Origin: a bacterium
GTDB lineage: Bacteria; UBA8248
DNA length: 64,000 bases
Assembly (NCBI GenBank): GCA_965202625.1
Contig: CBDBBI010000010.1
Coordinates: 183,311 to 247,310 of the forward strand
Direction of reading: 5' to 3'
Shown: positions 15,251 to 62,124 of the stretch, piece after piece
How positions within the stretch are numbered: position 1 is the stretch's first letter
Layout: each line of letters opens with the position of its first letter
Program-made: the position numbers and the translations under genes
Notes under the pieces: generated by a model
What the model was told of the DNA's origin: nothing
The model's database searches: none
The model's input: the letters and a program-made list of their open reading frames with translations, nothing else

Positions 15251-17875
15251 ATGTCATTCACTCCAATAAAAAAAATGATGGATCGCGTTCGAACCAATGG
15301 AAATGCCTCCGATTACGAGCTGTTTCACAAGCTTCTTTACGCAGGCGAATTTATAGCAAAAATAACCATTGCAGCCTTTGTCGCCTTGATTGACGACGAT
15401 CGAGACAACCATCGCTACAGGTGCGAGCATAGGCTCGTGAGAGCGGATGGAATTGGAGAGTGGGCAAAAAGCATTTCTGAAATCTGTACCGGACCAACAT
15501 CGCAACACCTCTCTCCTTCGATTCGGGACGCACAGCGTGTTTTCACAGAACGAGTCGGAAAAGGAAAAGATAAGTGGCAATATGAAGTCGTAGAAACCGT
15601 GCACGAAGTTTTGTCTGATATTAATCGTGATACTTCCCCGATAGAAAAAAAAGTCAGACTTCTCGCTTGGTTCATGAAGTTTGTTGAACTGCGGAATAAA
15701 ACCCGGGGTCATGGGGCACCCACAACCACTAAGTGCAAGAAACTTGTCCCGAAACTTCAAAGATCGATTGAGTTGCTGATTGCCAATAATCCTTTCTTTA
15801 ACCTGCCATGGGCTTATCTTCATCGAAATCTTTCAGGAAAATATAGAGTTGTTACGCTTGGGGGTGATGAATCTCATTTTTCGGAATTAAAGACCGCCGC
15901 GGCCTTAAAAGGAGAGAAAAAAGGAGAGAATTATCCAGATGGCATTTATTTGTGGGTCGAAAAACCAAGAGCAGTTTCTCTTCTGAAAAGCGATCCTGAT
16001 ACTACCGACTTCTTTGTTCCGAATGGTGCGTTCAATGGAAGAAAAAGAACCTACGAACTCCACTCACCCATTACCGACGATCGCAGCAAAGGAGACGCGA
16101 ATCTGTATCTTAAACCCCCGTCGAACAGGCCGCCTAGTGAAACAGAAGGGTTGGGGGAGCTAGACATTATTGGAAAAGTATTTACTAACCTGCCAGCAGC
16201 TCCGGTCGGTTACGTTAGGCGTCCCCAGCTCGAAGAGGAAGTAAGGGATAAATTCATCAATGACCGTCATTCGATTGTGACACTTGTTGGTCGCGGTGGC
16301 ATCGGCAAGACATCACTTGCGCTCATCGTATTGCATGAAATCGCTAAAACGGACCTATACGCAGTGATAGTTTGGTTTAGCGCGAGAGACATTGACTTAA
16401 CTGAAACCGGTCCCAAGGTCGTTAAACCCAAGACTTTAACCGCAAAGGATATTGAAGAAGAATATAGAGATTTGGTTACCCCACTTGGTTCTGATTTCAG
16501 CAACGGTAATATGTCAAAACATATGCACGAGTCTCCGCACGGTGGTCCGATATTATTCGTTTTTGACAATTTTGAAACAGTCCGCCCTCCGATTGATATT
16601 TACAACTGGATCGATATGAACATCAGACTGCCGAACAAGGCCGTCATCACTACGCGTTACCGAGATTTCAAAGCTGATTTCCCCATTGAAGTATCCGGCA
16701 TGGAGTATAATGAGGCGAAGGAACTCATTGAGCAAACTGCCAAGAAGCTTAACATTGAAGGAATAGTTGGCACTGAACAAATTGATCAAGTCATTGAAGG
16801 TTCAAACAGACACCCATATGTGATCAAGATTATTCTTGGAGAAATGGCGGATAGCCGTGAATTCAGTAAACCGAAAAGGGTGTTGGCCCGTAAAAACGAT
16901 ATTTTGGACGCTTTGTTCGAGCGAACCTATAGCAATTTGTCCCCACTTGCGAATCGTATTTTCCTTACCCTCAGTGGATGGCGATCTCTTGTGCCCCAGC
17001 TTGCGGTGGAGGCTGTGCTCCATTGGCGCAATTCGAATGAAGATGTTGATCCAGAAGCAGCGATCGATGAACTTGTACGTATGTCTTTAATTGAACGAAC
17101 AGTAGCAGAGGACGAAACCGATTTTCTTGGGGTGCCGATTACAGCAGCATTGTTCGGCAGCAAGAAGCTTGAAGTTAGCCCCTCTCATGAGTTGATTCGA
17201 AATGACATCCAGTTTCTGCGATATTTTGGACCCACGGCCACTATTAATTTGAACAAAGGTAGTTATCCGCGTATTCAATCTATTTTTAAGAAAATCTCTA
17301 ATCAGATCAGCGAGAAAAGCGTTTCTTTGGAAGAAATGCGACCAATGCTGGAGTTCATAGCAAAACATTACCATCAAGCTTGGTTGCTATTTGCTGATCT
17401 TGAGAACGAGGCAGGCGATGAACCGGAAAATGAAGCTGAATATATTCAACGTTTTCTTGAACAGAGTCCATCCAGTGAAGAAGCCCATAAGGCATGGATG
17501 CGCCTCGTTTCCCTCTACCGCACAATGGGTGGCGTCGATGGTGTTGTTGGAAGCTGTAGTGCTTTCTTAAGTGCTGCTAAGATTTTAGAGCCGGACATTG
17601 ATGATGTCAGCCGCATGGCAAATTATGTGAACAGCGATCGAGAAATCATTGATGGGATGGATGCTGACCAACGTAGCGCATTGCTAAAGCCACTTGCATC
17701 TCTTATGGAAAAACATCGGCAAAGTCTTTCTGCGACCGATTTGTCGCGGCTTGCATGGTTGTATCTTCACTCAGGAGAAAAAGAATGTGCGCGCCATCTG
17801 GCAGAATTAGGTTTAGAAAAAGATCCAGATAATGCGCATTGTCAGCGTCTTTATGAGAGGCTGAAATTAGAATAA
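15251..17875 (+). CDS. STAND/NB-ARC-type P-loop NTPase (874 aa): unknown N-terminal domain, central NTPase, helical/TPR-like C-terminus; candidate antiviral STAND (Avs-like) protein
   Basis: Walker [16 protein letters not shown] (aa ~345-358) and Walker [10 protein letters not shown] (aa ~434-442), as in NB-ARC; N-terminal ~330 aa with RNKTRGH (R-x5-H, HEPN-like) motif; C-terminal repeated helical hairpins. Gene and flanks (14933..17900) are markedly AT-richer than the rest of the window. Confidence 0.7.
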
Positions 17876-21080: not shown

Positions 21081-23027
21081 TCACAGCGCCTCCTTGATGG
21101 CGTAGAGAAACGCCGGCGTCTCGATGGAGGAGACGTCGATGCGCGCCGGGTCCGCGCCTAGATATACTTTCTTGATGGCGGCGCGAACGATTTTGGCCGA
21201 GCGGGTCTTGGGCAGTGCGCGGACGAACTTGACTTTCTCGGGCCGTAAACTTTTTCCGAGATATTTTACGGTTTCTTCTTTCAGGGTTTCCCTCAGCGCG
21301 TCCGTCGGTTCGTGGTTCTCGGCGAGCACCACGAAACAGCACAGACCCTCCCCCTTGATGGGGTGCGGCGCGCCGATGACGGCGGCCTCCACGACGGCTG
21401 GATGGGCGATGAGAGCCGCCTCCACCTCGGCGGGCCCCACGCGCTTGCCCGCGACGTTGATGGTGTCGTCCGAGCGGCCATAGAGATACCATTGGCCATC
21501 CGCATCCGCTCGTGCCCAGTCGCCGTGATACCAGACGTCAGGCCACCGGGAGAAATACGTCTCCATGTAGCGTGCGTCGTCTTTCAGAAAACTTTTCGTC
21601 ATCGAGGGGGTCGGCTGCTTACACACGAGATGGCCGATCTCACCGCGCACGGATTCTCCCGCCTCGTTGAACACGTCCGTGTCCGCCCCAAGGGCGGGGC
21701 CGCCCAGAGAGCAGGGCGTAAGTGGAACGATGGGGTAGGGCTGAAGCAGGCAGCCGCAAAGCTCGGTGCCGCCCGAGATGTTCATGATGGGACACCGCCC
21801 CCCTCCCACCTTCTCGAAGAACCACATGTAGGATTCCCGATCCCAAGGCTCGCCGGTCGAACCCAGTATTCGCAATTTCGATAGGTCGTGTTTTTCCACC
21901 CATTCGTCGCCCTGGCTGATCAACAGCCGAATCGCAGTGGGCGAGACGCCGAAGGTCGTCACCCCGTGATCGCTCAGGAGCTTCCAGAGACGGTCGGTCT
22001 CCGGCCAGTTAGGCGCCCCCTCGTAGATGAGGTAGGCGCCGCCCCCGAACTGGACCCCTATCATCTCCCAGGGGCCCATCATCCAGCCGATGTCCGTCAC
22101 CCAGAAGAAGACGTCCGCATCCCTTAAGTCGAGACAATATCGAATCTCTTTCGCCACGTTGAGCATACAGCCTGCGTGGGTGTGCACCGTGCCCTTGGGT
22201 TTTCCCGTCGTGCCCGAGGTGTAGATGATAAGAGAATGGGCCTCGGCGGGCAGGCGCTCGGTTGCTGCGGCGTCTGACTGCCCCCGGACGAAATCCTTCC
22301 ACGAGACGTCTCGCCCCTCCCGCATGGGGACGCGCGTTCCGGTTCTTCTGAAAACCACCACTTTTTCGACCCCCGTCCCGACATCGAGCGCCGCATCCAG
22401 CAGGGATTTTACGCCGACCTCCTTGCCTCGGCGCAGGCCTGCGTTCGACGTGAATACGAGTCGCGCCTCGGCGTGGGCGAGACGCTCGGCGACGGCCTCG
22501 GGGCCGAAGCCGGAGAAGATGGGAATCGCGACGACCCCGATTTTCAGGCAGGCGAACATGGCGAAGACAGTCTCGGGAATCATGGGCATGAAGATGCCTG
22601 CGCTCTCTCCTGGACGCATTCCCATTCCGCGCATGGCGTTCGCCAGCCGGCAGACGTGGGTGTTCATCTGCGCGTAGGTGAAGCGGCGGACCTCGCCGCC
22701 GTCGCCCTCCCAGACGAGGGCCGTTCTGTCGCGCGCCGGAGTCGCGAGATGCCTATCGATGCAGTTGTGGACGATGTTGATCTCACCGCCTAGAAACCAC
22801 TTCGTCCAGGGGAGGCCGCCCGATTGGTCGACGATTTTCTCATACGGCTTGAACCAAGAGACGCCCATGTCCTTTTCCAGCGTCTCCCAGAAGCGGCCGA
22901 CGTCCTCTCTGGAGAAGGCAAGGAGCGTCTCGTAGTCGGCGAGGTCGTTTTTGCGCATGAAGCGCGCGACGTTCGAGTTCTCGATAAAATCCTTGCTCGG
23001 CCGCCAGATGATGTCGTTCGCGCTCAC
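21081..23027 (-). CDS. AMP-forming acyl-CoA synthetase (acetyl/propionyl-CoA synthetase-like)
   Basis: 648 aa; YTSGTTGKPKG AMP-binding motif, ...ISGGTE..., SAKIVR C-terminal motif; Acs/PrpE-like N-terminal domain. Confidence 0.85.
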   Translation of the reverse strand: MSANDIIWRPSKDFIENSNVARFMRKNDLADYETLLAFSREDVGRFWETLEKDMGVSWFKPYEKIVDQSGGLPWTKWFLGGEINIVHNCIDRHLATPARDRTALVWEGDGGEVRRFTYAQMNTHVCRLANAMRGMGMRPGESAGIFMPMIPETVFAMFACLKIGVVAIPIFSGFGPEAVAERLAHAEARLVFTSNAGLRRGKEVGVKSLLDAALDVGTGVEKVVVFRRTGTRVPMREGRDVSWKDFVRGQSDAAATERLPAEAHSLIIYTSGTTGKPKGTVHTHAGCMLNVAKEIRYCLDLRDADVFFWVTDIGWMMGPWEMIGVQFGGGAYLIYEGAPNWPETDRLWKLLSDHGVTTFGVSPTAIRLLISQGDEWVEKHDLSKLRILGSTGEPWDRESYMWFFEKVGGGRCPIMNISGGTELCGCLLQPYPIVPLTPCSLGGPALGADTDVFNEAGESVRGEIGHLVCKQPTPSMTKSFLKDDARYMETYFSRWPDVWYHGDWARADADGQWYLYGRSDDTINVAGKRVGPAEVEAALIAHPAVVEAAVIGAPHPIKGEGLCCFVVLAENHEPTDALRETLKEETVKYLGKSLRPEKVKFVRALPKTRSAKIVRAAIKKVYLGADPARIDVSSIETPAFLYAIKEAL

Positions 23028-23217: not shown

Positions 23218-25164
23218 CTAGATCGCTTCCCGAATGGCGTCGAGATGCGCGGGGTTCTCAAGGGAGTTCATATCCATGTGGTCTACCGGCTCGCCCAGAT
23301 AGACCTTCTTGATCGCGCTGCGCACGATTTTCGCTGAGCGCGTCTTGGGCAACGCCCGAACGAACCGGACCGCATCGGGCCTCAAACTCTTGCCCAGATA
23401 TTCCACCGCTTGATCTTTGAGCTCCTCGCGCAGTGCGTCGCTCGGCGCGTAGGAATCCAGCATGACGACGAAGCACGTGAGGCCCTCCCCCTTCACCGGA
23501 TGCGGCGTTCCGACCACCGCCGCCTCGATGACGCCCGGGTGCTTGATGAGTTCGGATTCGATCTCGTTCGGTCCCACGCGCTTTCCCGACACCTTGATGG
23601 TGTCGTCCGAGCGGCCGTAGAGATACCAGAGTCCCTTCTCGTCCACCTTGGCCCAGTCGCCGTGATACCAGACGCCCTCCCAGCGCGAGAAATAGGTTTC
23701 GACGTAGCGCTCCGGCTCCTTCCAGAAGCCGTTGGTGAGCGAGGGGATGGGTTGTTTGAGCACGAGGTGGCCCACCTCGCCGCGAATCGGCTTCGCGTCC
23801 TCGCCGAACACGTCCGTGTCCGTGCCCATGGCCGGCGCCCCCAGCGTGCAAGGGGCGAGCGCCATGACGGGAAGGGGCTGGAGGAGGCAGGCGCCGATCT
23901 CCGTGCCGCCCGATATGTTCATGATTGGACAGCGCGAGCCGCCCACTTTCTCGAAAAACCACATGTAGGACTCCGTGTCCCAAGGCTCGCCCGTAGAGCC
24001 GAGAACGCGCAGGGAGGAGAGGTCGTGCTTCTCCACCCACGCATCGCCTGCGCTGATCAGAACGCGCACCGCGGTGGGCGAAAGGCCAAGATGGCTGATT
24101 CCGTGTCGGGCGACGATTTGCCAGAGGCGATCGGGCGCGGGGTGGTTCGGCACGCTCTCATACAGGAGGCAGGAATGCCCGCTGAAGTGTGCGCCCACCA
24201 GTTCATAGGGCGCCATGACCCAGCCGAAGTCCGTGACCCAGAAAACCGTGTCTCCATCGCGCATGTCGAGACAGTATTTGAGCTCTCGTCCGGGGCCGCT
24301 CATCAGGCCGGCGTGGGTATAGACGGCGCCCTTGGGCTTTCCGGTGGTGCCGGAAGTGTACATGATCATAGAGACGGCGTCTGCGGGGAGCCGCTCGGTC
24401 TTCGCCTCAGCGGGTTGGCCCTTCACGAAGGCGTCCCAGGTGACGTCGCGCCCCGCCTGCATGGGAACGTCCTCGCCCGAGCGCTGGACGACGACGACCC
24501 TTTCCACCATCACGCCCTGCTCCAGCGCGGCGTCCGCCGTGCCTTTGAGGGGAATATGCTTGCCCCGGCGAACGGCACCGTCGGCCGTGAACAGAATGCG
24601 CGCCTCCGCGTGAATCAACCGCTCGGCCAGTCCTTCAGGACCGAAGCCGGAGAAAACGGGCAACACCGCCACCCCCGTCTTAAAGCACGCGTACATGACG
24701 ATGGCGGCCTCGGGCACCATGGGGAGGAACACGCCCGCCACGTCCCCTGGCTTGAGTCCCATATCACGCATGGCGTTTGCCAGTCGGGAGACTTCCGCCG
24801 AGAGTTCGGCGTAGGTGAATTCTCGCGTCTCTCCCGTATCGCTCTCCCAGAGGAGCGCGGTCTGATTCCTTCGCGCACTCGCGGCGTGACGATCGATGCA
24901 GTTCAGTACAATGTTCGTCTCCCCGCCCACGAACCACTTCGCCCAGGGAAAGCCGCCGCTCAGGTCCAGCAACTCGTCATAGGGCCTGTACCACGCAAGC
25001 TCCATGTCTTCGAGCACGACTTCCCAGAAGCGGCGGATGTCCTCAACCGACCATTTCAGAAACTCTCGGTGATCGGCGATGTCGAGTTTTTTCATCAGCT
25101 TGGCCACGTGGCTGTTCGTCAGAAAATCTTCGTTGGGTCGCCATATGACGTCCGAGGTGTTCAC
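23218..25164 (-). CDS. AMP-forming acyl-CoA synthetase, tandem paralog (start assigned at GTG 25164 with GGAGAGGA Shine-Dalgarno upstream; an alternative ATG lies at 25257)
   Basis: Same motifs (YTSGTTGKPKG, SAKIVR); N-terminus VNTSDVIWRPNEDF parallels MSANDIIWRPSKDF of the neighbouring paralog. Confidence 0.8.
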   Translation of the reverse strand: MNTSDVIWRPNEDFLTNSHVAKLMKKLDIADHREFLKWSVEDIRRFWEVVLEDMELAWYRPYDELLDLSGGFPWAKWFVGGETNIVLNCIDRHAASARRNQTALLWESDTGETREFTYAELSAEVSRLANAMRDMGLKPGDVAGVFLPMVPEAAIVMYACFKTGVAVLPVFSGFGPEGLAERLIHAEARILFTADGAVRRGKHIPLKGTADAALEQGVMVERVVVVQRSGEDVPMQAGRDVTWDAFVKGQPAEAKTERLPADAVSMIMYTSGTTGKPKGAVYTHAGLMSGPGRELKYCLDMRDGDTVFWVTDFGWVMAPYELVGAHFSGHSCLLYESVPNHPAPDRLWQIVARHGISHLGLSPTAVRVLISAGDAWVEKHDLSSLRVLGSTGEPWDTESYMWFFEKVGGSRCPIMNISGGTEIGACLLQPLPVMALAPCTLGAPAMGTDTDVFGEDAKPIRGEVGHLVLKQPIPSLTNGFWKEPERYVETYFSRWEGVWYHGDWAKVDEKGLWYLYGRSDDTIKVSGKRVGPNEIESELIKHPGVIEAAVVGTPHPVKGEGLTCFVVMLDSYAPSDALREELKDQAVEYLGKSLRPDAVRFVRALPKTRSAKIVRSAIKKVYLGEPVDHMDMNSLENPAHLDAIREAI

Positions 25165-25180
25165 CTGGATTTCCTCTCCG

Positions 25181-26038
25181 TTATTTTCTGGCGTGATCCT
25201 GAATCCATACTTTGACGCGTGGGAACACGTACTCGTCCACCTCGCCCCACGCCCCACCGTCCACTTTGGCGGGCGGATCGTGCGCGCCCGCTTCGAGCTC
25301 CTCCATATTTTGCGCCAGCTCGCCGATGATGGAAGGATCCGGATAGGGGTCGGTATGTCCCGACGTTATCCACCGCACCTCTTTCTCCCGGGCGAGTTTT
25401 TCCATTTTCCTGAGCGAGGGGGCGTAGTCGGAGAGCACCGCCGTGGGTACTTGCAGGAACAGGTATTCCTCGCACCGAATCAAATCGCCCGAGACGAGAA
25501 TTTTCTCCCGCTCGTCGTAGAGCGAGATGCTGCATGGAGAGTGCCCGGGCGTGTCGTAGACGTAGAACTTTCTCTCGCCGAGGTCGAAGCTGTCGCTTTC
25601 CTGAAGCGTCCAGCCAAACGTGGCGGGTTTGATGGCGTAGGTGTCCTCGTCGAACCAGTTGGGGAAAGCTTTGCCATTGCTCTTCCACGTGTTCACGAAA
25701 GCCTTCTCCAGCCGGGAGAAATCGTTTGCGAGTAGGTTTTTGCCGGCGGGGTGAACGCCGACTTCATCCCATTGCGCCGCCGCCCCAAGGTGGTCCCAGT
25801 GGGTGTGGGTGAGAATGAAGTCGATGGGCTTGTCCGTGATGCTCTCGTAGAGTTTTCGCAAGTTTCCGACCCCGATTCCGCCGTCGATGGCGACCGCTTT
25901 TTCATCTCCGACCAAAAGGAGCATGTTGAATCGGCCGCCTTCGGTGATTTGGTAGCTGTTCGGGGCGAATTCGTTGACGGAGTACCAGTCTTGGGTTTCC
26001 ATGGAGTCGCCTTTCTCGTTGAGGGATGAACCATTCAC
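25181..26038 (-). CDS. MBL-fold metallo-hydrolase
   Basis: ILTHTHWDHLG (HxHxDH) motif; 285 aa. Confidence 0.75.
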   Translation of the reverse strand: MNGSSLNEKGDSMETQDWYSVNEFAPNSYQITEGGRFNMLLLVGDEKAVAIDGGIGVGNLRKLYESITDKPIDFILTHTHWDHLGAAAQWDEVGVHPAGKNLLANDFSRLEKAFVNTWKSNGKAFPNWFDEDTYAIKPATFGWTLQESDSFDLGERKFYVYDTPGHSPCSISLYDEREKILVSGDLIRCEEYLFLQVPTAVLSDYAPSLRKMEKLAREKEVRWITSGHTDPYPDPSIIGELAQNMEELEAGAHDPPAKVDGGAWGEVDEYVFPRVKVWIQDHARK

Positions 26039-36973: not shown

Positions 36974-37384
36974 TGTCCACTCCTTTAGTAGTAGATGGTG
37001 AAAACCTGCGCGATGTGGTGATGAAGCCCCATCACCGGATGAACGCTTCATCTCTATCTCTCGTGGAGAGTTCCCTTGCGCGCAATATCCGTCCATTCTT
37101 CTGAAGCTCCCCGTCTCATGCGCGCCTAGGGGACGCCCGCCGTTTCATCAAGACTGCGATATGAATGCGTCTATTATCCCCTCTCTGAAATCCGTGTCAA
37201 GACCTGCACGCACGTCGGTACGGGACGGTAGCGAGAGGGCAGTTTTGGAAGGGAAAGGCGGGTTTTGAGGGCGAGAGCATTTTCTCTGAATGTGTGATAA
37301 GGGGATAGGGGACGCGGGAGATTCTTTCATCACCGGCGGGAGAAAATCGGCGCCATGGCGTCAACTACCTGGGGGGAGAGGAAA

Positions 37385-38362
37385 ATGAAGGCGATATGCG
37401 TGCATGAATTCGGCGGTCCTGGGGTAATGGTGCTTGAGGAGGCGGAAGAGCGGACTCCGGCGGCGGGAGAAATTCTGGTGCGGGTGCGCGCGGCGGGAGT
37501 GAACCCTGTGGACACGACCTTTCGATCGGGTGCGCATCCATTGTCAAGAAACCTTGCTCTGCCCTGGACGCCCGGCATTGACGCGGCGGGCGAGGTGATG
37601 GCCGTCGGGGAGGGCGTGAGCGGATTCTCCCCTGGCGAGAGGGTTTTTGGCGCCGCGACGAGCGGGAGTTACGCAGAACAGGCGCTTCTCAACCCGTTGC
37701 GCACGGCGAAGCTTCCCGAGGGCGTATCCTATGAGGAGGGCGCTTCCTTTCCGGTCGTTTTATACACGGCCTATTACGCCCTGATATACAAGGCGCGCAT
37801 CAGGGCGGGCGAGACGGTGCTCATCCACGCGGGGGCCGGCGGCGTGGGCTGCATGGCGATTCAAATCGCGAAGGCGGCCGGAGTTCGCGTCATCACGACG
37901 GTGAGCTCGGAGGAGAAGGCGGAATTTTGCCGAGGGTTTGGCGCCGACGTGATAGTGAATTACCGGGACGAGGATTTTGCGGAGCGTTGCCTGGCGGAGA
38001 CCGAGGGGCGCGGGGTGGACGCCGTCGTCGAGATGGTGGCGACGGATAATTTCGACAAGGACTGCCGGGCGGTCAAAAAATATGGCTGCATCGTCGTGCT
38101 GGGCGCCGGGACCGGCAAGAACCCGGTGGGTTCGGTGAACTATCCCCCCTTCTATTCCAAGGATATCGACGTCCGGGGGATGAGCCTGTTCAATTCGGAC
38201 CCCGTGTTTCCGTACATGGCGCGTCAGTTGGATCTCCTGCTCGCCGAGGGGAGAGTGCGCGCCGCCGTGGGGGAGACGATGCCGCTCGCTGAGGCCGCGC
38301 GCGCCCACGAGGCGCTGATGACGGGCGAGGTTTTCGGGAAAATCGTCTTGTCGGTTGACTAG
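37385..38362 (+). CDS. qor: NADPH:quinone oxidoreductase / zinc-type alcohol dehydrogenase-like (MDR family)
   Basis: MKAICVHEFGGPGVMVLEE... ; GAGGVGCMAIQIAK cofactor motif; 325 aa. Confidence 0.8.
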   Translation: MKAICVHEFGGPGVMVLEEAEERTPAAGEILVRVRAAGVNPVDTTFRSGAHPLSRNLALPWTPGIDAAGEVMAVGEGVSGFSPGERVFGAATSGSYAEQALLNPLRTAKLPEGVSYEEGASFPVVLYTAYYALIYKARIRAGETVLIHAGAGGVGCMAIQIAKAAGVRVITTVSSEEKAEFCRGFGADVIVNYRDEDFAERCLAETEGRGVDAVVEMVATDNFDKDCRAVKKYGCIVVLGAGTGKNPVGSVNYPPFYSKDIDVRGMSLFNSDPVFPYMARQLDLLLAEGRVRAAVGETMPLAEAARAHEALMTGEVFGKIVLSVD

Positions 38363-38464
38363 ACGAGGCGTCAAGCCCATCAAACGAGCCGGCGCGAATG
38401 GCGGCTTCGATTTGGTGCCCGGTGGGGGGCGTGCCCTTTGACGTGAAAATTTCGTAAGGAAATC

Positions 38465-38767
38465 ATGCAGAAAATCATCTGGGTGATCAAGAAAATCCTG
38501 CTGGTTTTGGTCGCTTGGGTTTTGGTCGCGGGAACTGTTGGAGCGATGATCTTCGGCGAAGTTCGTTCTTGGCCCAACTTGATCAGCGTCGCTGTGCCGA
38601 TTTTCAGTCGCGGTGGAGCGTGGAGACGGGTTGCGGCCGCCTGCGCCGGATTCGCAGCAGGAAACCTGACCGTCCTGGCTTTTCGCACGGCGGCAAAATT
38701 GTATGTTGTGGCCAAAGGGGGTTTCAGCACGCCCGCTTTCTACGACGTCATTATCCACCGCCGGTAA
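38465..38767 (+). CDS. hypothetical small membrane protein (100 aa)
   Basis: Two predicted TM helices; no recognised family. Confidence 0.3.
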   Translation: MQKIIWVIKKILLVLVAWVLVAGTVGAMIFGEVRSWPNLISVAVPIFSRGGAWRRVAAACAGFAAGNLTVLAFRTAAKLYVVAKGGFSTPAFYDVIIHRR

Positions 38768-38904
38768 CATAGCTGGCATTGGTGCTGCTGTCGTCGCTCC
38801 GATTGTGAGCTTGGGGGTGGTTTTGCTGGTTTTGTGGTGGAACCGGACCCCCCTGAAATCGTCGAAGTGATTCCCCATGTCCTGCGTGCGACTTGAAAAC
38901 CCTT

Positions 38905-39020
38905 GTAGCTGAGCAAAAATCATTGCGCATTTATGCGAAAATAATTCAGAATGCCCTGGAAAATGGCCGTTTTTCGGGCGTAAATGGCCGTGAAAAGGCC
39001 TTGAAAAGCCCTTCAAAGCG
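38905..39020. repeat. ~110-nt dispersed repeat, copy A (contains aaatggccg sub-motifs)
   Basis: ~75-80% identical to 61861..61978 by eye. Confidence 0.6.
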
Positions 39021-39250
39021 CGTCGTCGAGCGCGGCGGCGGCGAGGGTCTCCGCGTCTCCGGGCGCGGCGTCGATGGGGGATAATCGCCGCGTTCGTCAT
39101 TGCGAGCAGTCGCCTTTCCGCCCGTTCGGGTGAAAAAACACAATGGGCGTCATCGGGAAAAGTTAAGGGAGAGCGCACAGCACGCTCCGTAAGTGGGCAC
39201 TTGTAGTTCACAATGCGGATATCGGTAGCGAAGAGGATTGGGGGAAAGAC

Positions 39251-46057: not shown

Positions 46058-47032
46058 ATGAAAGCGGTGCGCGTACATGAATTCAACATGGATGTCCCCA
46101 TGCGGGTGGATGAGGTGGAAGACCCGAAGCCAGCCCCTGGCGAGGTGTTGATAAAAACCGGCGCGGCCAGCGTCAATCCGGTGGACTTGGCCATTCGCGC
46201 CGCCAAACACCCCTACGCCAGGCTGGTTGTGCCGCCCTACGTTCCGGGCGCCGAGGCGGCGGGGGAAATCATCGCCTTGGGAGAGGGGGTGGAGGGCTGG
46301 CGTATCGGGCAGCGCGCGTATGGCCGCGCGGTGGGCGGCGGCTACGCCGAGAACGTGCGCCTCTCGGCGGACGCGGCGGCGGAGTTGCCCGACGCCTGCT
46401 CCTACGAGGAGGGAGCGTGCATCACCGTGGCGTTCTATACCGCCTGGAACGCGCTCGTCATCAAGGCCCAGGCGGGTCCCGGCGAGACGGTGCTGATTCA
46501 GGGCGGAGCGGGAGGCGTCGGCATGGCGGCGATTCAACTCGCCCGGCGCCTGGGGTGTCGCGTCTTCGCCACGGTGAGCTCTGATGAAAAGGCGAAATTT
46601 TGCAGGGATTTGGGCGCGGACGAGACGATCAACTACCGAGAGGAGGATTTCGCGGAACGCTGCATGGAGCTCACCGACGGGCGCGGCGTCGACGTCGTCG
46701 TCGAGCTTTGCGCGTGCGATAATTTTGACAAGGATCTGGACGCCATCCGCGTGGACGGAAGAATTATCGTCATAGGTACGGGAACGGGGAAGGGGCCGGG
46801 CGCGGAGTTTCGCGTTCCGGCCGTGATGACGAAAGACACCGTCGTTCTCGGTTTGGCCGTGGTGAACCTGTTTCCGAAGATGCCGGAGTTGGTGCGCCGC
46901 TTCACGCCTTTGCTGCGCGAGGGCGCGTTTCGCGTCCACGTCGATAGGACATGGGGGTTTGCGGAGGCGAACCAGGCACACGATCACGTTTTGGAGGGGC
47001 GGTTTCTGGGCAAGGTTGTCCTGACCCCATAA
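46058..47032 (+). CDS. qor: NADPH:quinone oxidoreductase (MDR family), paralog 2
   Basis: MKAVRVHEF..., GGAGGVGMAAIQLAR. Confidence 0.8.
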   Translation: MKAVRVHEFNMDVPMRVDEVEDPKPAPGEVLIKTGAASVNPVDLAIRAAKHPYARLVVPPYVPGAEAAGEIIALGEGVEGWRIGQRAYGRAVGGGYAENVRLSADAAAELPDACSYEEGACITVAFYTAWNALVIKAQAGPGETVLIQGGAGGVGMAAIQLARRLGCRVFATVSSDEKAKFCRDLGADETINYREEDFAERCMELTDGRGVDVVVELCACDNFDKDLDAIRVDGRIIVIGTGTGKGPGAEFRVPAVMTKDTVVLGLAVVNLFPKMPELVRRFTPLLREGAFRVHVDRTWGFAEANQAHDHVLEGRFLGKVVLTP

Positions 47033-47072
47033 GCGCCCACGGGCGAGGGTTGCGGGGCGAGAGGAGAAGGAA

Positions 47073-48047
47073 ATGAAAGCGATAAGGGTGACCCGGTTCG
47101 GGCTCGAGCATCCGATGGTTCTGGAAGACGTGGAGGAGCCGAAGCCGGGGCGCGGCGAGATTTTGGTGCGCGTAGCGGCCGCCGGAGTGAATCCTCTGGA
47201 AGTCGCCATACGCTCGGGAAAGCATCCGCGCTCCAGGGCGATGCGCCTCCCCTATACGTGCGGCACGGACGTGGCGGGCGAGGTGGAGGCGGTGGGCGAG
47301 GGCGTCGATGCGTTCTCTCCGGGAGATCGGGTATGGGGGCGCGCCCCGGCCGGCGCGTACGCCGAGAGAGGGCTGGTGCCCGCAGACGCGGCGGGAAGGC
47401 TGCCGGATTCCATGTCCCTCGCGCAGGGTGCCGCGCTGCCCATCCCCCTCCTCACGGCCTGGAACGCCTTGATTCTGAAGGGAGAGGCGACTCCGGGCGA
47501 TTGCGTGCTCGTGCAGGGGGGAGCGGGCGGCGTGGGCTATTTGTCCATTCAGCTCGCCCGCGAGGTGGGTTGTCGGGTGTTCGCCACCGTGAGCTCGAAG
47601 GAGAAGGCGGATTTTTGTCTCGCCGCCGGTGCCGAGGCGGCCATCAACTACAGGGAGGAGAACGTGCCCGAGCGCGTGATGGCACTCACTGCCGGACGGG
47701 GCGTCGATGTCGTCGTGGAGACTGCGGGCTGCGAGAATTTGCCCGCCGACCTCACGCTCAACGCCGTCAACGGCCGAATCGTCATCGTGGGAACGGGGAC
47801 GGGCAAGGGGCCGGAAGCGACGATTCCGCTGCCGGCGGCCATGGGACGAGACGCCAGAATTCTGGCGCTCTCATCGGGGAATCTGGGCCCGCTCGTTCCG
47901 GGCATCATCCGGCGTCTGTCCCCTTTGCTGGACAGAGGCGCCATCAACCCCCACGTCGGACGGGAGTTTCCGCTTGCGGAGGCGAACGACGCCCACGCGC
48001 TTTTGTTGAGCGGAAAGTTTCTGGGCAAACTGAACCTCGCACCCTAG
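47073..48047 (+). CDS. qor: NADPH:quinone oxidoreductase (MDR family), paralog 3
   Basis: MKAIRVTRFG..., GGAGGVGYLSIQLAR; tandem to paralog 2. Confidence 0.8.
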   Translation: MKAIRVTRFGLEHPMVLEDVEEPKPGRGEILVRVAAAGVNPLEVAIRSGKHPRSRAMRLPYTCGTDVAGEVEAVGEGVDAFSPGDRVWGRAPAGAYAERGLVPADAAGRLPDSMSLAQGAALPIPLLTAWNALILKGEATPGDCVLVQGGAGGVGYLSIQLAREVGCRVFATVSSKEKADFCLAAGAEAAINYREENVPERVMALTAGRGVDVVVETAGCENLPADLTLNAVNGRIVIVGTGTGKGPEATIPLPAAMGRDARILALSSGNLGPLVPGIIRRLSPLLDRGAINPHVGREFPLAEANDAHALLLSGKFLGKLNLAP

Positions 48048-50113: not shown

Positions 50114-51124
50114 ATGACCATGGGGGATCCTGCGGGAGTGGGCCCCGAGGTGTGCCTGAAGGCGGCTCAGGAGGTGCGCGTTCAAAAAAAATGTGTCCCC
50201 GTCATCGTCGGCGACGCGGCGGTTCTTCGCAAACACGCGCGCAGAATGGGAGTTCGGCCCCGGCTCCAGTCGCTCGCAGAGGAGAAGCCGCCCCCTCCGG
50301 AGTGCGAATCCTCGTCCATTTGCGTGATCGACCTCAAAAACGTCGCTCCCGCGCATCGGGTGTTCGGAGAGGTTCTTCCCGAACTCGGCAGGGCGTCGGG
50401 CGAATACGTCGAAAGAGCCGTCTCGATGGTGCGCACCGGATGGGCGGACGCCGTTGCGACCGCACCGATAAGCAAGGAATCCTTGCAGGCCGGAGGTTAT
50501 GACTATCCCGGGCATACCGAAATGCTCGCCGCCCTGTGCGGCGGGGGACGGCCCGTCATGATGCTGGCCCACCGCAGAATACGCATCGCCCACCTATCCA
50601 CGCATTGCCCTCTTCGGACGGCGGTTCAGCTCGTGAAGAGAAAAAGAATCGTATGCGTGGGGCGGATTTTCGACGAGGCGTTGTGCCTGCTCGACCGCAA
50701 GAGGCCCAGAATCGGGGTTGCGGGCCTGAATCCCCACGCGGGCGAATCCGGCTTGTTCGGAACCGAGGAGGGGGAGGAAATCGCGCCGGCGGTTTCGGAT
50801 TTGCGGGCGATGGGCATCGACGCGCATGGGCCCGAGCCGCCGGATACGATATTCGCGAAATTGCGAGGGGGGCACTACGCTGGCGTCGTGGCCATGTATC
50901 ACGACCAGGGACACATTCCGGGGAAGCTGGCGTGTTTTCGCTTCAACGCCCGGGGGGAGGGGAGCGTTCGGGGCGTCAACGTCACGCTGGGCCTGCCCAT
51001 CATCAGAACGTCGGCGGAACACGGAACGGGGTTTCCCATCGCAGGGCGGGGGGTCGCCGACCCCTCCAGCATGATCGACGCGCTCCTCCTCGCCGCCCGA
51101 ATGGTCAAAAATGGCGGGAAATGA
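50114..51124 (+). CDS. PdxA-family 4-hydroxythreonine-4-phosphate dehydrogenase-like (PdxA2-type) oxidoreductase
   Basis: Start at MTMGDPAGVGPEV (canonical PdxA N-terminus GDPAGIGPE); ...AGLNPHAGE... and YHDQGHIP motifs. Confidence 0.8.
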   Translation: MTMGDPAGVGPEVCLKAAQEVRVQKKCVPVIVGDAAVLRKHARRMGVRPRLQSLAEEKPPPPECESSSICVIDLKNVAPAHRVFGEVLPELGRASGEYVERAVSMVRTGWADAVATAPISKESLQAGGYDYPGHTEMLAALCGGGRPVMMLAHRRIRIAHLSTHCPLRTAVQLVKRKRIVCVGRIFDEALCLLDRKRPRIGVAGLNPHAGESGLFGTEEGEEIAPAVSDLRAMGIDAHGPEPPDTIFAKLRGGHYAGVVAMYHDQGHIPGKLACFRFNARGEGSVRGVNVTLGLPIIRTSAEHGTGFPIAGRGVADPSSMIDALLLAARMVKNGGK

Positions 51125-51387
51125 ACAGTTTGTGGTGCCGCTCCGCCAGAGCCGTTTCGCTTTTATGCTTCGGTATCTGAGAAATTTTCTGCGCACGACG
51201 CCGTTGTCTGCCCCCACGACGCCCTGTGCGGGCTGAGACGCAGGGCGGCGTGGGCGAGTAGGTTGGCAGGAGATGCGCGGCCGGCTTCGGCGACGCCAAC
51301 GGTTTATAAAATCGCACTGGCTGGCCTGATCCGTGATTGACGGTTCTGGCCGTTGTGGCCACTATCCCGTCAAAATGGAGATAGCCC

Positions 51388-51527
51388 ATGAAAGCGATTT
51401 CCGCCCGGCGCGCGCCCGTTGTGGTCGAAAAGCACGGTCGGCCGTTCGTCGTGGTCATGGCCGTCAAGGAACGTGAAAATCTGACGGGGAACATCGTCCT
51501 TCCCTCACAAGATAAGGAGCACGAACC

Positions 51528-51530
<3 letters not shown>
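51388..51530 (+). other. possible remnant of a Phd/YefM-like antitoxin (very short, runs into hsdM without its own stop)
   Basis: MKAISARRAPVVVEKHGRPFVVVMAVKERENL resembles the antitoxin pattern ...ISAS.AR..f..l...V..Ge.VvItRhGkPvAVLvs.eEYE.L with the central part missing. Confidence 0.2.
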
Positions 51531-53091
<1,561 letters not shown>

Positions 53092-53099
<8 letters not shown>

Positions 53100-54378
53100 T
53101 ATCTGGCCGAGAATACCTTTAGATTCTGTTGTCCGCTTCCAAGAAGGTCCGGGCATCCTTGCGAAAGACTTTCATCCAGACGGCGTTCCGCTTGTTAGGC
53201 TTGCGGGGCTTGGCGGGTACGAAGTAACGCTCAACAAGTGTAACTATCTTGATCCGTCTTTCGTAGCGAAGAAGTGGGATCACTTCAGGCTTAAAAAGGG
53301 GGACATACTTATTTCAACGAGTGCATCATTTGGAAGACCTGCGGTTGTGGGTGCAGAAGCCGAAGGCGCAATATTTTACACGGGAATAATCCGCTTTCGT
53401 TCTATGTCTAGTGAGCTAAACGAGGGCTATTTGAAAAGCTTCCTCGGGTCTCGCGCGTTTATGCTTCAGGCCGAAGCACAGGCGTCAGGAAGTGTAATTA
53501 GTCATTTTGGACCTTCGCATTTGCGCCGGATGGAAATCCCACTGCCGCCATTGAAAGAGCAGCAAAATATCGCGTACGTACATTCCACCCTCGACGACAA
53601 GATCGAACTGAACCGGTGGATGAACGAGACGCTGGAGGCGATGGCGCGGGCGATTTTCAAGGACTGGTTCGTGGATTTCGGCCCCACCCGCGCCAGGATG
53701 GAAGGCCGCGAACCCTGCCTCGCCCCCGAAATCTGGAACCTGTTCCCCGACAGGCTGGATGCGGAAGGCAAGCCGGAGGGGTGGGAGCAAGGAACCCTTG
53801 TGGATATTGCGGATTCCCCGAGGCGAGGCGTTAGCCCAGCCGACGTTGCCGAGGACACGCCCTACATCGGCCTAGAGCATATGCCGCGCCGTTCAATCGC
53901 ACTCTCGGAGTGGGAAGGCGCGGGGAAAGTTACGAGCAACAAGTCGATCTTTAAAAAGGGGGAATTCCTGTTCGGGAAACTGCGGCCCTACTTCCACAAG
54001 GTCGGATTTGCGCTATTGGACGGCATTTGTTCGACTGACATCGTTGTTGTGATCCCGCGAGCCCCGAACTGGGGAGCGTTTACTCTCGCCTGCCTATCTA
54101 CGGATGAATTCGTGGATTACACGGATCAGACGTCGACCGGCACGAAGATGCCGCGCACGGGCTGGAATACAATGGGGCAATACGAGGTTTGCATTCCATC
54201 TGAGCAGATTGCCCATGCTTTTCAGAGCATCGCGCAGACGCTGTTTGACCGTGTCAGCACGAACATTCATGAATCCCGCACCCTCGCCCAAACCCGCGAC
54301 TTTATTCTTCCGAAACTGATGTCCGGCGAAATCCGGCTCCGTGAAGCCGAGAAGATCGCAGGGGAGGCAGTTGCATGA
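53092..54378 (+). CDS. hsdS: Type I restriction-modification system specificity subunit
   Basis: 428 aa with two target-recognition domains and conserved central/terminal repeat (...[11 protein letters not shown]...; ...[11 protein letters not shown]...); 8-nt overlap with hsdM. Confidence 0.85.
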
Positions 54379-55172
54379 AGGTAGCGGCAGGAGAACCGGT
54401 GTACCATGAAGGCAGCGCCCCGTGTTCCGGGCTTGGCCTGAAGTGGTCGGGCGACGAGCTTGATGCTGCGATGAATGGCCGCGTGGCTGCCGTCCTGTTT
54501 GATGACGCAGGCAAGGCCGACATCGAAGGCATTCTGACCGGCCTTCCCGAGACCGACTTTGAGCAGGAAGGGCTTCGCCGTATTCTCTCCGCTCCCGATG
54601 ATATGGAGGACTGGCGCGTCGGAGAGGCGATCGCCGAGGCCTATCTCACTGATCACCGCGATTGCTGTTTCCCGTGGCCTGCCGGACGAGACGAGCGCAA
54701 GCGAGGCTCCAGTCTGCCTGGTGCGGATCTTGTCGGCTTCCATGCCGACGAGCAGGGCGATTGCCTGGCATTTGGTGAAGTCAAGACGTCCTCCGAAGCC
54801 AGGTATCCACCGGGGAGCATGTATGGCCGGACAGGGCTCAAGCAACAACTTGGGGACTTGCGAGACAGGGTTTCCATACGCGATGACCTCGTCTGGTATC
54901 TCTTCCATCGTGCCAAGGGGGCCGATTGGTTTGCGCGGTTCATGAAGGCGACAAAGCGCTATCTGGCCAACAAATCGGACGTGCGGCTTTACGGGTTTCT
55001 TGTCCGTGATGTTCAACCGCAGAAAGATGACGTGCGAGTCCGTGTGGAAAAGCTCGGAAAGGACTGCCCGGAGGGAACGAAAGTTGAACTTCTTGCGCTG
55101 TATCTTCCGAAGGGCCGCATTAAAGGAATCGGCGCCGCCGCTGTGAAGACAAGGACAGGAGCGGGATCATGA
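54375..55172 (+). CDS. PD-(D/E)xK-like nuclease-fold protein (candidate HamA/DUF1837-like component)
   Basis: 265 aa; PGADLVGF (D118) ... LAFGEVKTS (E135-x-K137) restriction-endonuclease-like motif; ATGA start/stop overlaps with hsdS upstream and the helicase downstream. Confidence 0.45.
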   Translation: MKVAAGEPVYHEGSAPCSGLGLKWSGDELDAAMNGRVAAVLFDDAGKADIEGILTGLPETDFEQEGLRRILSAPDDMEDWRVGEAIAEAYLTDHRDCCFPWPAGRDERKRGSSLPGADLVGFHADEQGDCLAFGEVKTSSEARYPPGSMYGRTGLKQQLGDLRDRVSIRDDLVWYLFHRAKGADWFARFMKATKRYLANKSDVRLYGFLVRDVQPQKDDVRVRVEKLGKDCPEGTKVELLALYLPKGRIKGIGAAAVKTRTGAGS

Positions 55173-58100
55173 CTCTGTCCATGAAATCTCTTGACGATCT
55201 CAGAGAACATTGGGCTGTCAGTGCAATCGGCGCGGAGGATATCGCGCGGGCCGAAAGGCTCGTAAACGAAAATCTCGCCCGTCGAGCGGTTGGCCAGCAG
55301 ATAGCCTTTTCGTTCTCGCCAGGTGCGAGTGACGACGCCTTTCTGGAGCGCGTTGCGCTGGCCTTTGAAATGGCGGCTATTGAGGGCCTGGACGAGCTGA
55401 GCCGTCCTTCCGGCGAGAACGCGGCATTGCGCGATCAGGCGACTGCCGCGTCATTCCGCGCTTTTGATATTCGCCGTTTGCTGCCGGTCCCGACCGAAAC
55501 GCATGACCGGCTTTTCTTTGTCCTGCAACTTTCCGCCCTTGCCTATTGCGGGGATCGCTGGTCGGACCTTCGCCGCTGGTACAAGGAAAACGCCGGGGCA
55601 CTGGCGGCTCCGAGCGTTGCCGAAAGCCTGTGGGACCGCCGCCTTCTGTACCGTTTGTTCCATTGCTGGGTCCGGTTGTTCCGGAAGGAGGGCTGGGATG
55701 ATCTTGACCGGATCAGTGAGATCATCGACGGACTGCGCGACGATCAAAAGATATATGAGAAAGAGCGACTTAAGAACGGTTCGCACGCGGCGAATCGGGC
55801 AATCGCCCTGCGGCTTGCGGCGCTTTATCACTGGGCGAAGAGCACCGAGCTTGTTGCGCAATACATGTTGCAGGGGCAGCCGGCAAACCCGTTTGGCTTG
55901 ATTGACAAGCACTTCGACGGGGCCATCAAGGCAGCGACGGCCTCAGGCGACGCGCAGCACGAGATTATTCTGCGCTGGTTACATGCAGCCGCGCGGATCA
56001 TGATCACGAACTCGCTTTGGTGGGCGACGCGTACCGTCAATTCACGCACAACGCGTTTTGTCCACTCCTTGACGCACCGCAAACACCAGGCGATGTTCGA
56101 GCTCCTGCCGCCTCAGCGAGCGGCCCTTCTTGAGCAGGGGCTGCTCGATCAGGCCAAGACGGCAATCGTGGTCGATATGCCGACCTCGGGAGGAAAAACC
56201 CTCCTCGCGCAATTCCGCATCCTTCAGGCATTGAATCAGTTCAGCGCCGATGGTGGCTGGGTCGCATATGTTGCGCCCACACGCGCCTTGTCCGCCCAGA
56301 TCACCCGGCGGCTGCGAAAAGACTTCGAGCCGCTCGGCGTCCGGGTCGAGCAACTAACGGCCGCGGTCGAGGTGGACGCCTTTGAGGAGGAGCTGCTGGC
56401 GAACAAGGAGCAGCCATTCACGGCCACGGTCCGGGTGGACGTCTTTGAGGAGGAGCAGCCGGCGGACAACGATCCGCCATTCGACATTCTCGTGGCTACA
56501 CCCGAGAAGCTGTCCCTCGTCATCCGCAACAAGAAGGTCGAGAACCGGCCGCTTGCCCTCGTTGTCATGGACGAAGCACACAATCTCGAAACGAAAGACA
56601 GAGGGCTCCGCATCGAGTTGTTGCTCGCGACGGTGAAGAGGGATTGTCCGAAGGCGAACTTCCTTCTCCTCATGCCTTATGTAGAAGGAGCGGAATCCGT
56701 AGCGCGGTGGCTGGCACATGATATAAACGCCGGCCAGGCGATCAGCCTTGGAACGACGCCCTGGAAACCCAATGAACGAATTATCGGCCTTTATAGTGCC
56801 GTTGCGGATGACAGCCAGCGCGCTGGATGGCATCTCAAATTCGAGACTTTAACTGCTACTTCGAAAGCTATGCAGCTTCACGGCACTCACCGCGTTGGCG
56901 GTGTGAAGCCCATCAATGTTCCCAAAAGCAAGGTGCTTATCAAAGGCCGGCAGGAAGGTTTCGGCCTTCAGACGGCGGCCATTGCGACCGTCATGTCCGC
57001 CCGTGGCACGAGCGTCGCCATAGCCAACCATATTCCCACCGTGTGGAACATGGCCGCCAAGGCGGCAGAGTGCTTGTCGGATTTCGATACGATTCCGACC
57101 GACATCAAGCTCGTTCAGGATTTTCTGCGCACCGAGATCAGCCCCGACTTCCCGCTGATTGCAATGCTGGACAAGGGAGTCGGTGTCCACCATGCCGGTC
57201 TTTCCGATGACGTGCGCGGCCTTATGGAGTGGCTTGCCGAAACCGGAAGCCTGCGGATGCTTTGTGCGACCACCACGATTGCGCAGGGGATCAATTTTCC
57301 GGTTTCCTCCGTTTTCCTGCAAACGCACAAATATCGCTACGGGCAGGAAATGTCGCCGCGCGAGTTCTGGAACCTGGCCGGTCGCGCAGGCCGTATCGAT
57401 CATGACAGCGTGGGTGTCATTGGCATTGCGGAAGGTTCGAGTCGAGATTCTCTCATCAAGTTCGTCAGCCGCAACACGGGTGCTCTCGTCTCGCGCCTTG
57501 TCTCGTTGCTGGACGATCTTGCCAAGCAAGGCGAATTGGCGAATCTGTCGGAAGTCCTTTGTCAGGAACAATGGGAGGATTTCCGCTGTTACATTGCGCA
57601 TCTTTGGGCGGAGAAAAAGAACCTCGACGCCGTTCTCTCTGAATCTGATCAGCTCCTTCGCCAGACGTTCGGCTATACGTCTCTGCGAAACGACCCCGCG
57701 CAGCGGGAGAAGGCTGACGCATTGCTGCTTGCGGCCCACGCCTACGCGCGCGAACTTGCCAAGAAGCCTGGCGTCGCCGAACTTGCGGACTCGACGGGCT
57801 TCTCACCGGAAGGCGTGGGTAAAGCGATGAGCGAACTTAACCAGCTTGAGACCAAACTCACGCCATCGGATTGGGCTCCGGAGAGTCTTTTCGGAAAGGG
57901 CGGCAAAATCGCCGATTTGTATGGCGTCATGTTGAAAGTGCCGCAACTCCAGAAGCAACTTGAGGAGATTGGCGGCCAGGGTTTTGATCGCACCCGGATT
58001 TCCGATATCACGCGCGACTGGGTGAATGGCAAGGGAATTGACGCCATAGCCAGGGAGTACTTCAGCCGGGAAACGGACGACGAAGGGAGAACGGCTGCGA

Positions 58101-58504
58101 TTACGGATGCCTGCCGCGCCATATATCGCGCGATTGTCAATAATGGAACCTGGGGTGTTTCCGCGCTGAGCCGCATTTCCGGTATCGACTTTGACAGTCT
58201 GCCGGAGGCCGAGCGTCGCAGGATCAATGCGCTTCCCGCGATGATTTATCACGGCGTCCGCACGGAAGATGCGGTTTTGATGCGTATGAATGCCGCGCCA
58301 CGCAGCGCGTCTGTAAACCTAGGGAATTTGTATCGCGAGACAATCGGCGAAGGCGATGGTCGCTATTCCGTCGGCCAAGCCCGCCAATTCCTGAAAGACC
58401 TGAGCGATCGCGACTGGCACCGCGCCCGCCCGGAAAGCGCCGCTCTCTCTGGCGACGGATACAAGCGCGTCTGGGAAGTGCTTTCCGGGGAGAGAAGCAC
58501 ATGA
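55169..58504 (+). CDS. SF2 DExH-box (Ski2/Lhr-like) helicase, 1111 aa (candidate HamB-like component)
   Basis: Motif [10 protein letters not shown] (~56176-56199), motif [10 protein letters not shown] (DEAH, ~56564-56584), motif VI-like [13 protein letters not shown]; long C-terminal helical domain; contains a 63-nt in-frame tandem duplication (56357-56482). Confidence 0.7.
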
Positions 58505-58538
58505 CGGCATTTGCCGAAAACGTCAAGGAGGCCGTGTA

Positions 58539-61697
<3,159 letters not shown>

Positions 61698-61860
61698 TGA
61701 CCAGAAAAGACGAGACATGAGAAGCTCCGTTCCATGCGGACTCTCTTCCAAAAATTTCTGGGACGCAGGGTGTCCCGGTTCCTTGACGCGGCGGGCCGGG
61801 CGGTATGCGCGGAACCCCCTCGGGTCGCATACGCCCTGGACAGCCTGGTCGGCTGTAGCC

Positions 61861-61978
61861 AGACAAAATAATTGCGAATTTGCACAAAAATAACCCGGAA
61901 TGCCTTGTGAAAAAGACCGTTTTTCGGGGCCTAAACGGCTTGTGAAATGGCCGTGCAAGGGTGTTGCAAAGGTCGCGC
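61861..61978. repeat. ~110-nt dispersed repeat, copy B
   Basis: Aligns with 38905..39020 (aaaataa..gaatgcc.tg.aaaa.g.ccgtttttcggg...aaatggccgtg...caaag..cgcg). Confidence 0.6.
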
Positions 61979-62124
61979 AAGGCAGAATCCGCAAGCGTTG
62001 ATTGCGGCGAGGGCGTCCGCAGCCTTTGATATCTCCAAGGAAAATTTGGTTTGGTTGCGGGGGCAGGATGTGAACCTGTGCCTTCAGGTTTGGGGATGGG
62101 GGTCTTGCGAGAAGACGCGGCCCC

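Follow-up and report, generated by a model that had tools for sequence, protein, structure and literature searches.

Helically phased A-tracts occur at bacterial promoters (PMC9825172, PMC4132750). The parC site of plasmid R1 is 159 bp long and strongly curved, with a 39-bp core that has a set of five 11-bp iterons on either side, the two sets flanking the par promoter (PMC2241845). These systems are compared below with a noncoding repeat that is present twice, as copies A and B, in the 64-kb window analyzed in this work (the window being the whole stretch of DNA under study). The nearest named homologs of the window proteins, according to protein searches, were proteins of Nitrospinota metagenome-assembled genomes (MAGs).

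Similar to the curved A-tract promoters, the repeat has 8–9 tracts with a period of 11–11.5 bp over ~110 bp and a strong predicted bend, forms an AT-rich island in a GC-rich genome and, in the case of copy A, is located upstream of a co-oriented operon which lacks the proximal promoter of a relative. In contrast to such promoters, however, all 120 nt occur twice as one homologous unit, there is no gene for copy B to drive, a −35/−10 pair in common is missing, and the tracts are found on both sides of the core and not just upstream. With R1 parC the repeat shares 11-bp direct repeats, a similar length, a central nonrepeated core and curvature, but there is no parR/parM or other partition gene in its vicinity, its left and right units differ, and it is represented by two diverged chromosomal copies without sequence similarity to plasmids.

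The dispersed elements of the REP/BIME, ERIC and MITE-like types resemble the repeat in being short, noncoding, exclusively intergenic and lineage-restricted and in occurring more than once. The repeat differs from them in not being palindromic overall, in the lack of terminal inverted repeats and target-site duplications and in its numbers (two copies seen in the 64-kb window, none across ~104 kb from related genomes), and from the GC-rich hairpins of the REP type in being AT-rich and periodic. The likeness to att sites concerns the direct repetition in one orientation and the position of copy B beside a horizontally acquired island, whereas most of the DNA separating the copies is core genome, an integrase and a tRNA target were not seen, and the copies are only ~75–78% identical. 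Overall, the repeat is of a kind already known, that of short repeats dispersed in intergenic DNA or of curved DNA resembling promoters, and nothing in it would greatly surprise a specialist; what intrigues is only that both copies share a position at the edge of acquired DNA.

Homology and extent of the two copies

Copies A (38904–39020, 117 nt) and B (61854–61978, 125 nt), both on the + strand and 22,950 bp apart, are homologous: 91 of the 116 ungapped columns of their global alignment were identical (78%), with 10 gap columns in addition, and blastn gave 74.8% identity over 119 columns with an E-value of ~1e-15. This upheld the earlier note, which had aligned the two intergenic sequences at roughly 75–80% identity and had named similarity below the significance level as an outcome that would speak against a repeat. 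The local alignment of A 38904–39006 with B 61854–61958 reached a score of 79 against 17.0 ± 2.3 (maximum 31) for mononucleotide and 17.2 ± 2.6 (maximum 30) for dinucleotide shuffles. Because of the periodicity and low complexity of A and B, a control was added in which copy B was permuted in blocks of 11 nt; it scored 26.7 ± 5.1, and the highest of its 1000 trials reached 50. The real score exceeded this maximum as well, indicating that the similarity reflects collinear homology and not shared composition.

The left boundary was sharp in both copies at TGTAGC, and the left flanks were unrelated. This edge places the start of copy B at 61854 and not at 61861, as had been assumed before. On the right-hand side, the extended alignment included a 17-nt collinear match, GCGGCGAGGGnnTCCGC, between 39038–39054 and 62004–62020; this possible extension (GCGGCGAGGGTCTCCGC on the + strand at copy A) may lengthen the repeat rightwards, the match being not significant when taken alone (p ~ 0.09).

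The substitutions between A and B were of all types (13 transitions and 12 transversions), accompanied by six indels. Because the 1-nt indels break every reading frame, the repeat is noncoding; a protein-coding role was rejected, with the frames interrupted by stops and the 1-nt indels differing between A and B. Neither blastn nor nhmmer detected a third copy in the 64-kb window.

Periodicity, predicted curvature and the dyad core

Both copies are sharply bounded AT-rich islands (44% GC in A and 47% in B) within flanks of 56–63% GC, with nine A/T-tracts at a period of ~11 bp in copy A and eight at a period of ~11.5 bp in copy B. The AA/TT periodicity of copy A peaked at 11.0 bp with a Fourier power (10.5–11.5 bp) of 2.57, compared to a mean shuffle maximum of 0.46 (p < 0.001), and that of copy B at 11.5 bp with a power of 1.92 (p < 0.001); none of the 1000 shuffles reached the values observed for A or B. 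In a sliding 120-nt scan of the 64-kb window, copy A ranked first and copy B second in periodicity, and both exceeded every 120-nt window in ~190 kb of related loci.

Copy B was less regular than copy A. In the latter, TRF recognized an 11-nt unit, AAAAGGCCTTG, repeated 3.3 times in tandem at 38982–39017 (+ strand), and in copy B, where the corresponding stretch has decayed, it found no tandem unit. An aaatggccg-like sub-motif had previously been counted two to three times in each copy: this held better for A, with four matches to GAAAWGGCCKT at no more than one mismatch (38960, 38981, 38992, and 39003), than for B with its single match (61944). The units in the left-hand and in the right-hand part of the repeat differ in sequence.

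The wedge model gave a bend of ~130° over 120 bp for copy A, the second most curved locus in the window, and of ~86° for copy B, which ranked 31 of 6388 windows in curvature, although only this ranking is to be trusted. Both copies are thereby predicted to be strongly bent.

The best-conserved stretch of the repeat was a dyad core, GAATGCC-N9/10-CCGTTTTTCGGG, and the pattern GAATGCC-N11-13-CCGTT matched these two sites only in the whole window, with 0.04 matches expected by chance. The dyad is imperfect, comprises ~11 pairs and is retained in both copies. In copy A (38949–38979, + strand) the core consists of GAATGCC and the dyad GCCCtGGAAAA-N6-TTTTTCGGGC with a hairpin of −6.2 kcal/mol as DNA (z −1.6), and in copy B (61898–61930, + strand) of GAATGCC and GCCttgtGAAAAA-N5-TTTTTCGGGGC with a hairpin of −5.4 kcal/mol (z −1.8). 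Promoters of the ECF-sigma type have the form GGAAC-N16-17-CGT. The core, read by eye as GAAT-N15-CGTT in A and as GAAT-N16-CGTT in B, is taken by us to resemble such a promoter, which is to be treated as a lead only because a chance match would be expected in about 1 of 10 AT-rich 120-mers. The A/T positions were conserved to 81% and the G/C positions to 75%, a difference in which two sequences cannot separate selection for the tracts from shared descent. Among the previous interpretations, putative iteron-like protein-binding sites had the best anatomical fit, given the 11-bp phased units and the dyad core.

Copy A locus

Copy A ends 231 nt before the ATG of the CoA-transferase gene at 39251, in line with the ~230 nt given earlier, and is located upstream of and co-oriented with the CoA-transferase/FrsA-like/EamA operon. 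It is preceded by a lineage-specific segment (38363–38903, + strand) which did not align with the corresponding loci of two relatives, L005 and L007. The window sequence from 38363 to 39042 stands in place of the 5′ two-thirds of a gene for a 246-aa protein in L005, and the same spot in L007 is occupied by another, different small ORF. The homology to the relatives resumes at 39043, ~20 nt past the end of copy A, with a remnant of the C-terminus of the L005-type gene (39043–39205, + strand; blastn identity of 67% over 182 nt with L005 9598–9777), in which the frame is open and the start codon is absent. The intact gene of L005 (9008–9748) encodes a protein with a Cys/His-rich N-terminus.

The replaced segment includes a 100-aa ORF which matched only itself among 1.84 billion representative proteins. 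At 38465–38870 (+ strand) this ORF overlaps, in another frame, a 55-aa ORF with a convincing transmembrane helix; the pair may stem from an error of assembly or represent a small membrane-protein gene with a frameshift.

A sigma70-like promoter is present in L005 23 nt upstream of the CoA-transferase ATG, inside a stretch of ~190 nt that is absent from the window. The sole + strand sigma70-like match upstream of the operon in the window was located at 38893–38920, overlapping the left edge of copy A, and no such site was found between 38921 and the CoA-transferase ATG. The AT-rich islands elsewhere in the window were mostly positioned 5′ of genes.

Copy B locus and the pdxA–comF hot spot

Copy B starts 157 nt past the stop codon of hsdR at 61697, i.e., just 3′ of the type I restriction-modification (R-M) operon, as had been noted before. 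It is placed between convergent genes and faces the 3′ end of comF, with no gene to drive, and no promoter-like site was found in it. The preceding R-M/PDC-M23 island (51296–61697, + strand) consists of a Phd-like remnant, hsdM, hsdS, PDC-M23A/B, and hsdR, as delineated by Pfam, PADLOC and synteny breaks. This island (~51.3–61.7 kb) is a horizontally acquired defense insertion between pdxA and comF. The pdxA–comF interval was observed to be an insertion hot spot: it is empty in the relative L003 (10757–11216), contains two AAA_16/TPR ATPase genes in L004 (10757–15198) and the R-M/PDC-M23 island in the window (51124–62125). Just downstream of pdxA, a moderately periodic AT-rich element was present in L004 (~15081) and L003 (~11131), unrelated in sequence to the repeat.

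The closest relatives of the R-M module (six loci, L008–L013, with 83% HsdR identity) are found near integrase, phage tail genes or DNA polymerase. They share the Phd-like upstream region with the window and have nothing in common with it downstream of hsdR, which indicates that copy B is not a part of the R-M module as found elsewhere.

Several observations were made on the island itself. PADLOC recognized PDC-M23A (265 aa, E-value 5e-99) and PDC-M23B (1111 aa, a HamB/Hachiman-like DEAD helicase) between hsdS and hsdR at 54375–58504 (+ strand), a candidate two-gene defense system. Since the closest R-M relatives hold a 246-aa Abi_C gene in that slot, the position between hsdS and hsdR seems to be an exchangeable cargo site. 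The PDC-M23B gene includes a tandem duplication of 63 nt (21 codons) with 81% identity at 56349–56474 (+ strand). Upstream of hsdM, a Phd/YefM-like antitoxin frame was found at 51388–51527 (+ strand) in DNA homologous to the gene of a 60-aa antitoxin in related R-M modules; it continues into hsdM, the 71 codons read being free of stops, and so may be damaged.

Synteny of the DNA between the copies

Five relatives were used for the comparison, two of them (L003 and L004) with ComF 71–73% identical and three (L005–L007) with CoA-transferase 85–87% identical to the window proteins. The gene order of the window at 33–51 kb, i.e., DctM, NMT1, ADH, CoA-transferase, FrsA-like, EamA, PolyA_pol, DUF1194, ADH, ADH, HAD, TPP, and PdxA, was kept in L003–L007, with the stretch from DctM to PdxA syntenic in L005–L007, and the nucleotide identity to L003 and L004 was ~78% at 42.9–51.1 kb and 62.1–64.0 kb. 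Among the relatives, only the part at 51.1–62.1 kb, the cargo between pdxA and comF, differed. The conserved order in the relatives means that the 22.8-kb block between the copies is mostly core genome and not a unit. The check suggested in the earlier note, whether 39.0–61.9 kb is absent as a unit in relatives, was accordingly answered in the negative, with only the R-M part being an insertion.

These data bear on the interpretation of the copies as att-like direct repeats bounding an integrated element of 22.8 kb. The same orientation of the direct repeats and their spacing would be compatible with it, but the relatives L005–L007 share the gene order between the CoA-transferase gene and pdxA, and the identity of ~75–78% between the copies is unlike that of fresh att duplications. 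No integrase or recombinase was recognized by Pfam among the genes beside both copies and in the R-M island, nor among the syntenic genes of the relatives (the window genes at 41.8–49.9 kb lying outside this set), and the window had no tRNA or other usual att target gene. An att origin of the pair is therefore hardly credible, and for annotation the 22.8-kb "block" should not be called an island. The repeat was absent at the orthologous sites of all five relatives and in the relatives of the R-M module.

Search for further copies and element classes

No copies were found in ~104 kb of related genomes, and blastn against plasmid and phage collections produced either no match or noise limited to the GC-rich tail. 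The pattern AATGCC-N3-4-GAAAA-N3-CCGTTTTTCGG was scanned against the GTDB species representatives, JGI metagenomes and IMG/VR, with three loci as the output. Two of them (L001 and L014) were inside apparently coding sequence and were rejected as chance matches, and the left-half pattern had no match in viral contigs. As exact-pattern scans are insensitive to ~75%-identical copies, this absence is weak evidence.

The third locus (L002, positions 6960–7030; Pseudomonadota MAG contig JAUPTV010000109.1) contains a look-alike of the core, GAATGCCcccGAAAATaaCCGTTTTTCGG, with a perfect 7-bp dyad. It has the core dyad in common with the repeat and matches TTGCGCATTTATGC at 12 of 14 positions, and outside the imposed pattern its similarity to copy A was marginal (p ~ 0.01) and to copy B absent. 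The match is positioned between cysK and an ORF that we take to be Fic-like, 35 nt upstream of the latter, and is probably due to chance.

Multiple unrelated copies, as expected for a generic REP-like family, had been anticipated in the earlier note as a possible objection, and no further copies were found in any sequence searched. A MITE or IS-derived origin was rejected on account of missing terminal inverted repeats and target-site duplications and the unrelated flanks of the copies. On neither strand of the left junctions (38340–38520 and 51100–51340) did a left-end partner emerge above the level of the shuffles. The substitutions of all types and the lack of a reverse transcriptase among the scanned genes excluded a template/variable pair of a diversity-generating retroelement (DGR). 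An XerC/D dif-like site, an integron attC, Tn7/Mu-type TGT...ACA ends, a sigma54 promoter and an IHF site were rejected on reading the sequence against their consensus sequences.

Possible function of the repeat

The explanation favored here, tentatively and somewhat short of an even chance, is that the repeat acts as DNA and not as RNA, being a lineage-specific, intrinsically curved module of the promoter/operator type. The phasing and the dyad core have outlasted 22% divergence and six indels, and both are properties of double-stranded DNA, which favors a module functioning at the DNA level. In such a module, about ten A/T-tracts spaced by one helical turn would present narrow minor grooves on one face of ~120 bp, and the phased tracts may bend the DNA in vivo or allow it to wrap round a protein oligomer. 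The dyad core could be bound by a dimeric regulator, serve as an ECF-like promoter for an alternative sigma factor, or combine the two roles. Copy A would now provide the upstream promoter region of the CoA-transferase/FrsA-like/EamA operon, and copy B, at the distal edge of the island, would be orphaned or decaying, with antisense transcription as the most it could drive. A promoter role of copy A is supported by the loss of the L005-type promoter stretch, by the sigma70-like match at its left edge being the only one upstream of the operon and by the mostly 5′ location of the AT-rich islands. The higher regularity of copy A is what would be expected with A in use and B decaying. Against a promoter module are the lack of a sigma70 −35/−10 pair common to both copies and the location of copy B between convergent genes, and no regulator gene was found near either copy.

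Other explanations were weighed against the curved promoter/operator module. A rather unlikely one regards the repeat as a junction relic, i.e., a terminal piece left over from foreign DNA or from a non-autonomous mobile element which brought in both lineage-specific segments, the piece itself having no present function. This would account for the location of both copies at the right-hand edge of DNA absent in relatives, A being followed within ~20 nt by the resumed L005 homology and B squeezed between the R-M island and comF, for their orientation, which is that of the inserted genes, for the sharp left boundary TGTAGC and for the absence of the repeat from the orthologous sites of five relatives, where both sites are variable hot spots. 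It is opposed by the lack of terminal inverted repeats, a target-site duplication, a left-end partner and a transposase or integrase among the genes scanned or the syntenic genes of relatives, by the closest R-M relatives, which share the upstream DNA but not the repeat, by the third island of the window (the NB-ARC gene at 15.2–17.9 kb) being without a copy, and by the absence of matches in plasmid or phage collections; moreover, neutral decay is not expected to keep the phasing in both copies. A very improbable possibility is that the repeat is the cis site of an unrecognized one-ended mechanism of cassette capture or insertion: a phased protein-wrapping site would mark the downstream edge of acquired DNA, with the recombinase encoded elsewhere. 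Two hot spots, ADH/CoA-transferase with the cassette of the homolog-less ORF and pdxA/comF with the R-M/PDC-M23 island, would in this case provide the edges. The anatomy of the repeat also recalls a stand-alone array for a DNA-wrapping protein, such as a parC-like centromere, replication iterons or a nucleation site for a nucleoid protein, with no promoter role. The direct 11-nt units placed one per helical turn, the predicted curvature and a size and layout reminiscent of R1 parC (PMC2241845) are in agreement with it. However, the left and right units are unlike in sequence, those of copy B have decayed, both copies are in a chromosomal core context, and the neighbors of the copies (an ORF without homologs, a gene remnant, CoA-transferase, hsdR, and comF) include no ParR/ParM, ParA/B or Rep gene, which makes an array of this kind distinctly improbable.

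The remaining explanation, that the copies are paralogous genes of small RNAs or leader RNAs with the left third serving as promoter and the remainder as transcript, is improbable as well. Their size and the presence of two diverged copies are typical of sRNA paralogs, the sigma70-like site at 38893–38920 would transcribe most of copy A, and the central hairpin is kept in both copies (z ~ −1.6 to −1.8) through compatible changes, two sequences being too few for covariation. On the other hand, Rfam covariance models produced no match at the gathering score in the whole window and only noise (E 0.4–10) in permissive scans, with none for the repeat even at E ≤ 10. The z-scores of the minimum free energy for the whole element were −1.0, −0.9, −1.25, and +0.3 for the two copies on two strands, i.e., it folds no better than shuffled sequences. 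There was no intrinsic terminator within or after either copy on either strand, copy B has no promoter-like site, the repeat was conserved in no relative examined, and the 1-nt indels leave the periodicity of the DNA intact while displacing the pairings predicted for the RNA. The earlier proposal of a small structured RNA was thus not supported, and neither locus should be annotated as an RNA gene.

If the repeat does work as a curved promoter/operator, it would illustrate the re-wiring of an operon, in an uncultured Nitrospinota-like bacterium, once the promoter-proximal DNA of the operon has been replaced, and it would offer a compact natural example of bent DNA with 11-bp phasing over 120 bp, open to testing in vitro. 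Should it instead mark where acquired DNA ends, it would provide a handle on the entry of defense islands at pdxA–comF. With a lineage-restricted repeat in two copies, whose function is only proposed, the practical value is mainly negative.

Other features of the window

A low-GC island at 15251–17875 (+ strand), with a GC3 of 0.42 compared to 0.7–0.8 in the neighboring genes, encodes an 874-aa NTPase of the NB-ARC/STAND type. It is probably another acquired defense gene, and no copy of the repeat was found at its edges. Two adjacent ORFs on the − strand, at 21081–23027 (an AMP-binding acyl-CoA synthetase according to Pfam) and 23218–25257, share DNA repeats with 69% identity spaced by 2137 nt. 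Three paralogs of a zinc-type alcohol dehydrogenase are encoded on the + strand at 37355–38362 and 46058–48047.

GC-rich words of the hairpin type, CGTCATTCCGG...CCGGAATGACG, occur at 10–34 and 1625–1649 as an inverted pair separated by 1.6 kb, and the related word CGTCATTGCGAGC was found at 39096–39108, just downstream of copy A; these words may constitute a separate REP-like family. According to the wedge model, the most curved locus of the window is situated at 1241–1400, where an ankyrin-repeat gene of the − strand has its 5′ end and upstream region; within the part coding for the signal peptide, the locus includes TTGAAAAT units spaced by 11 nt.
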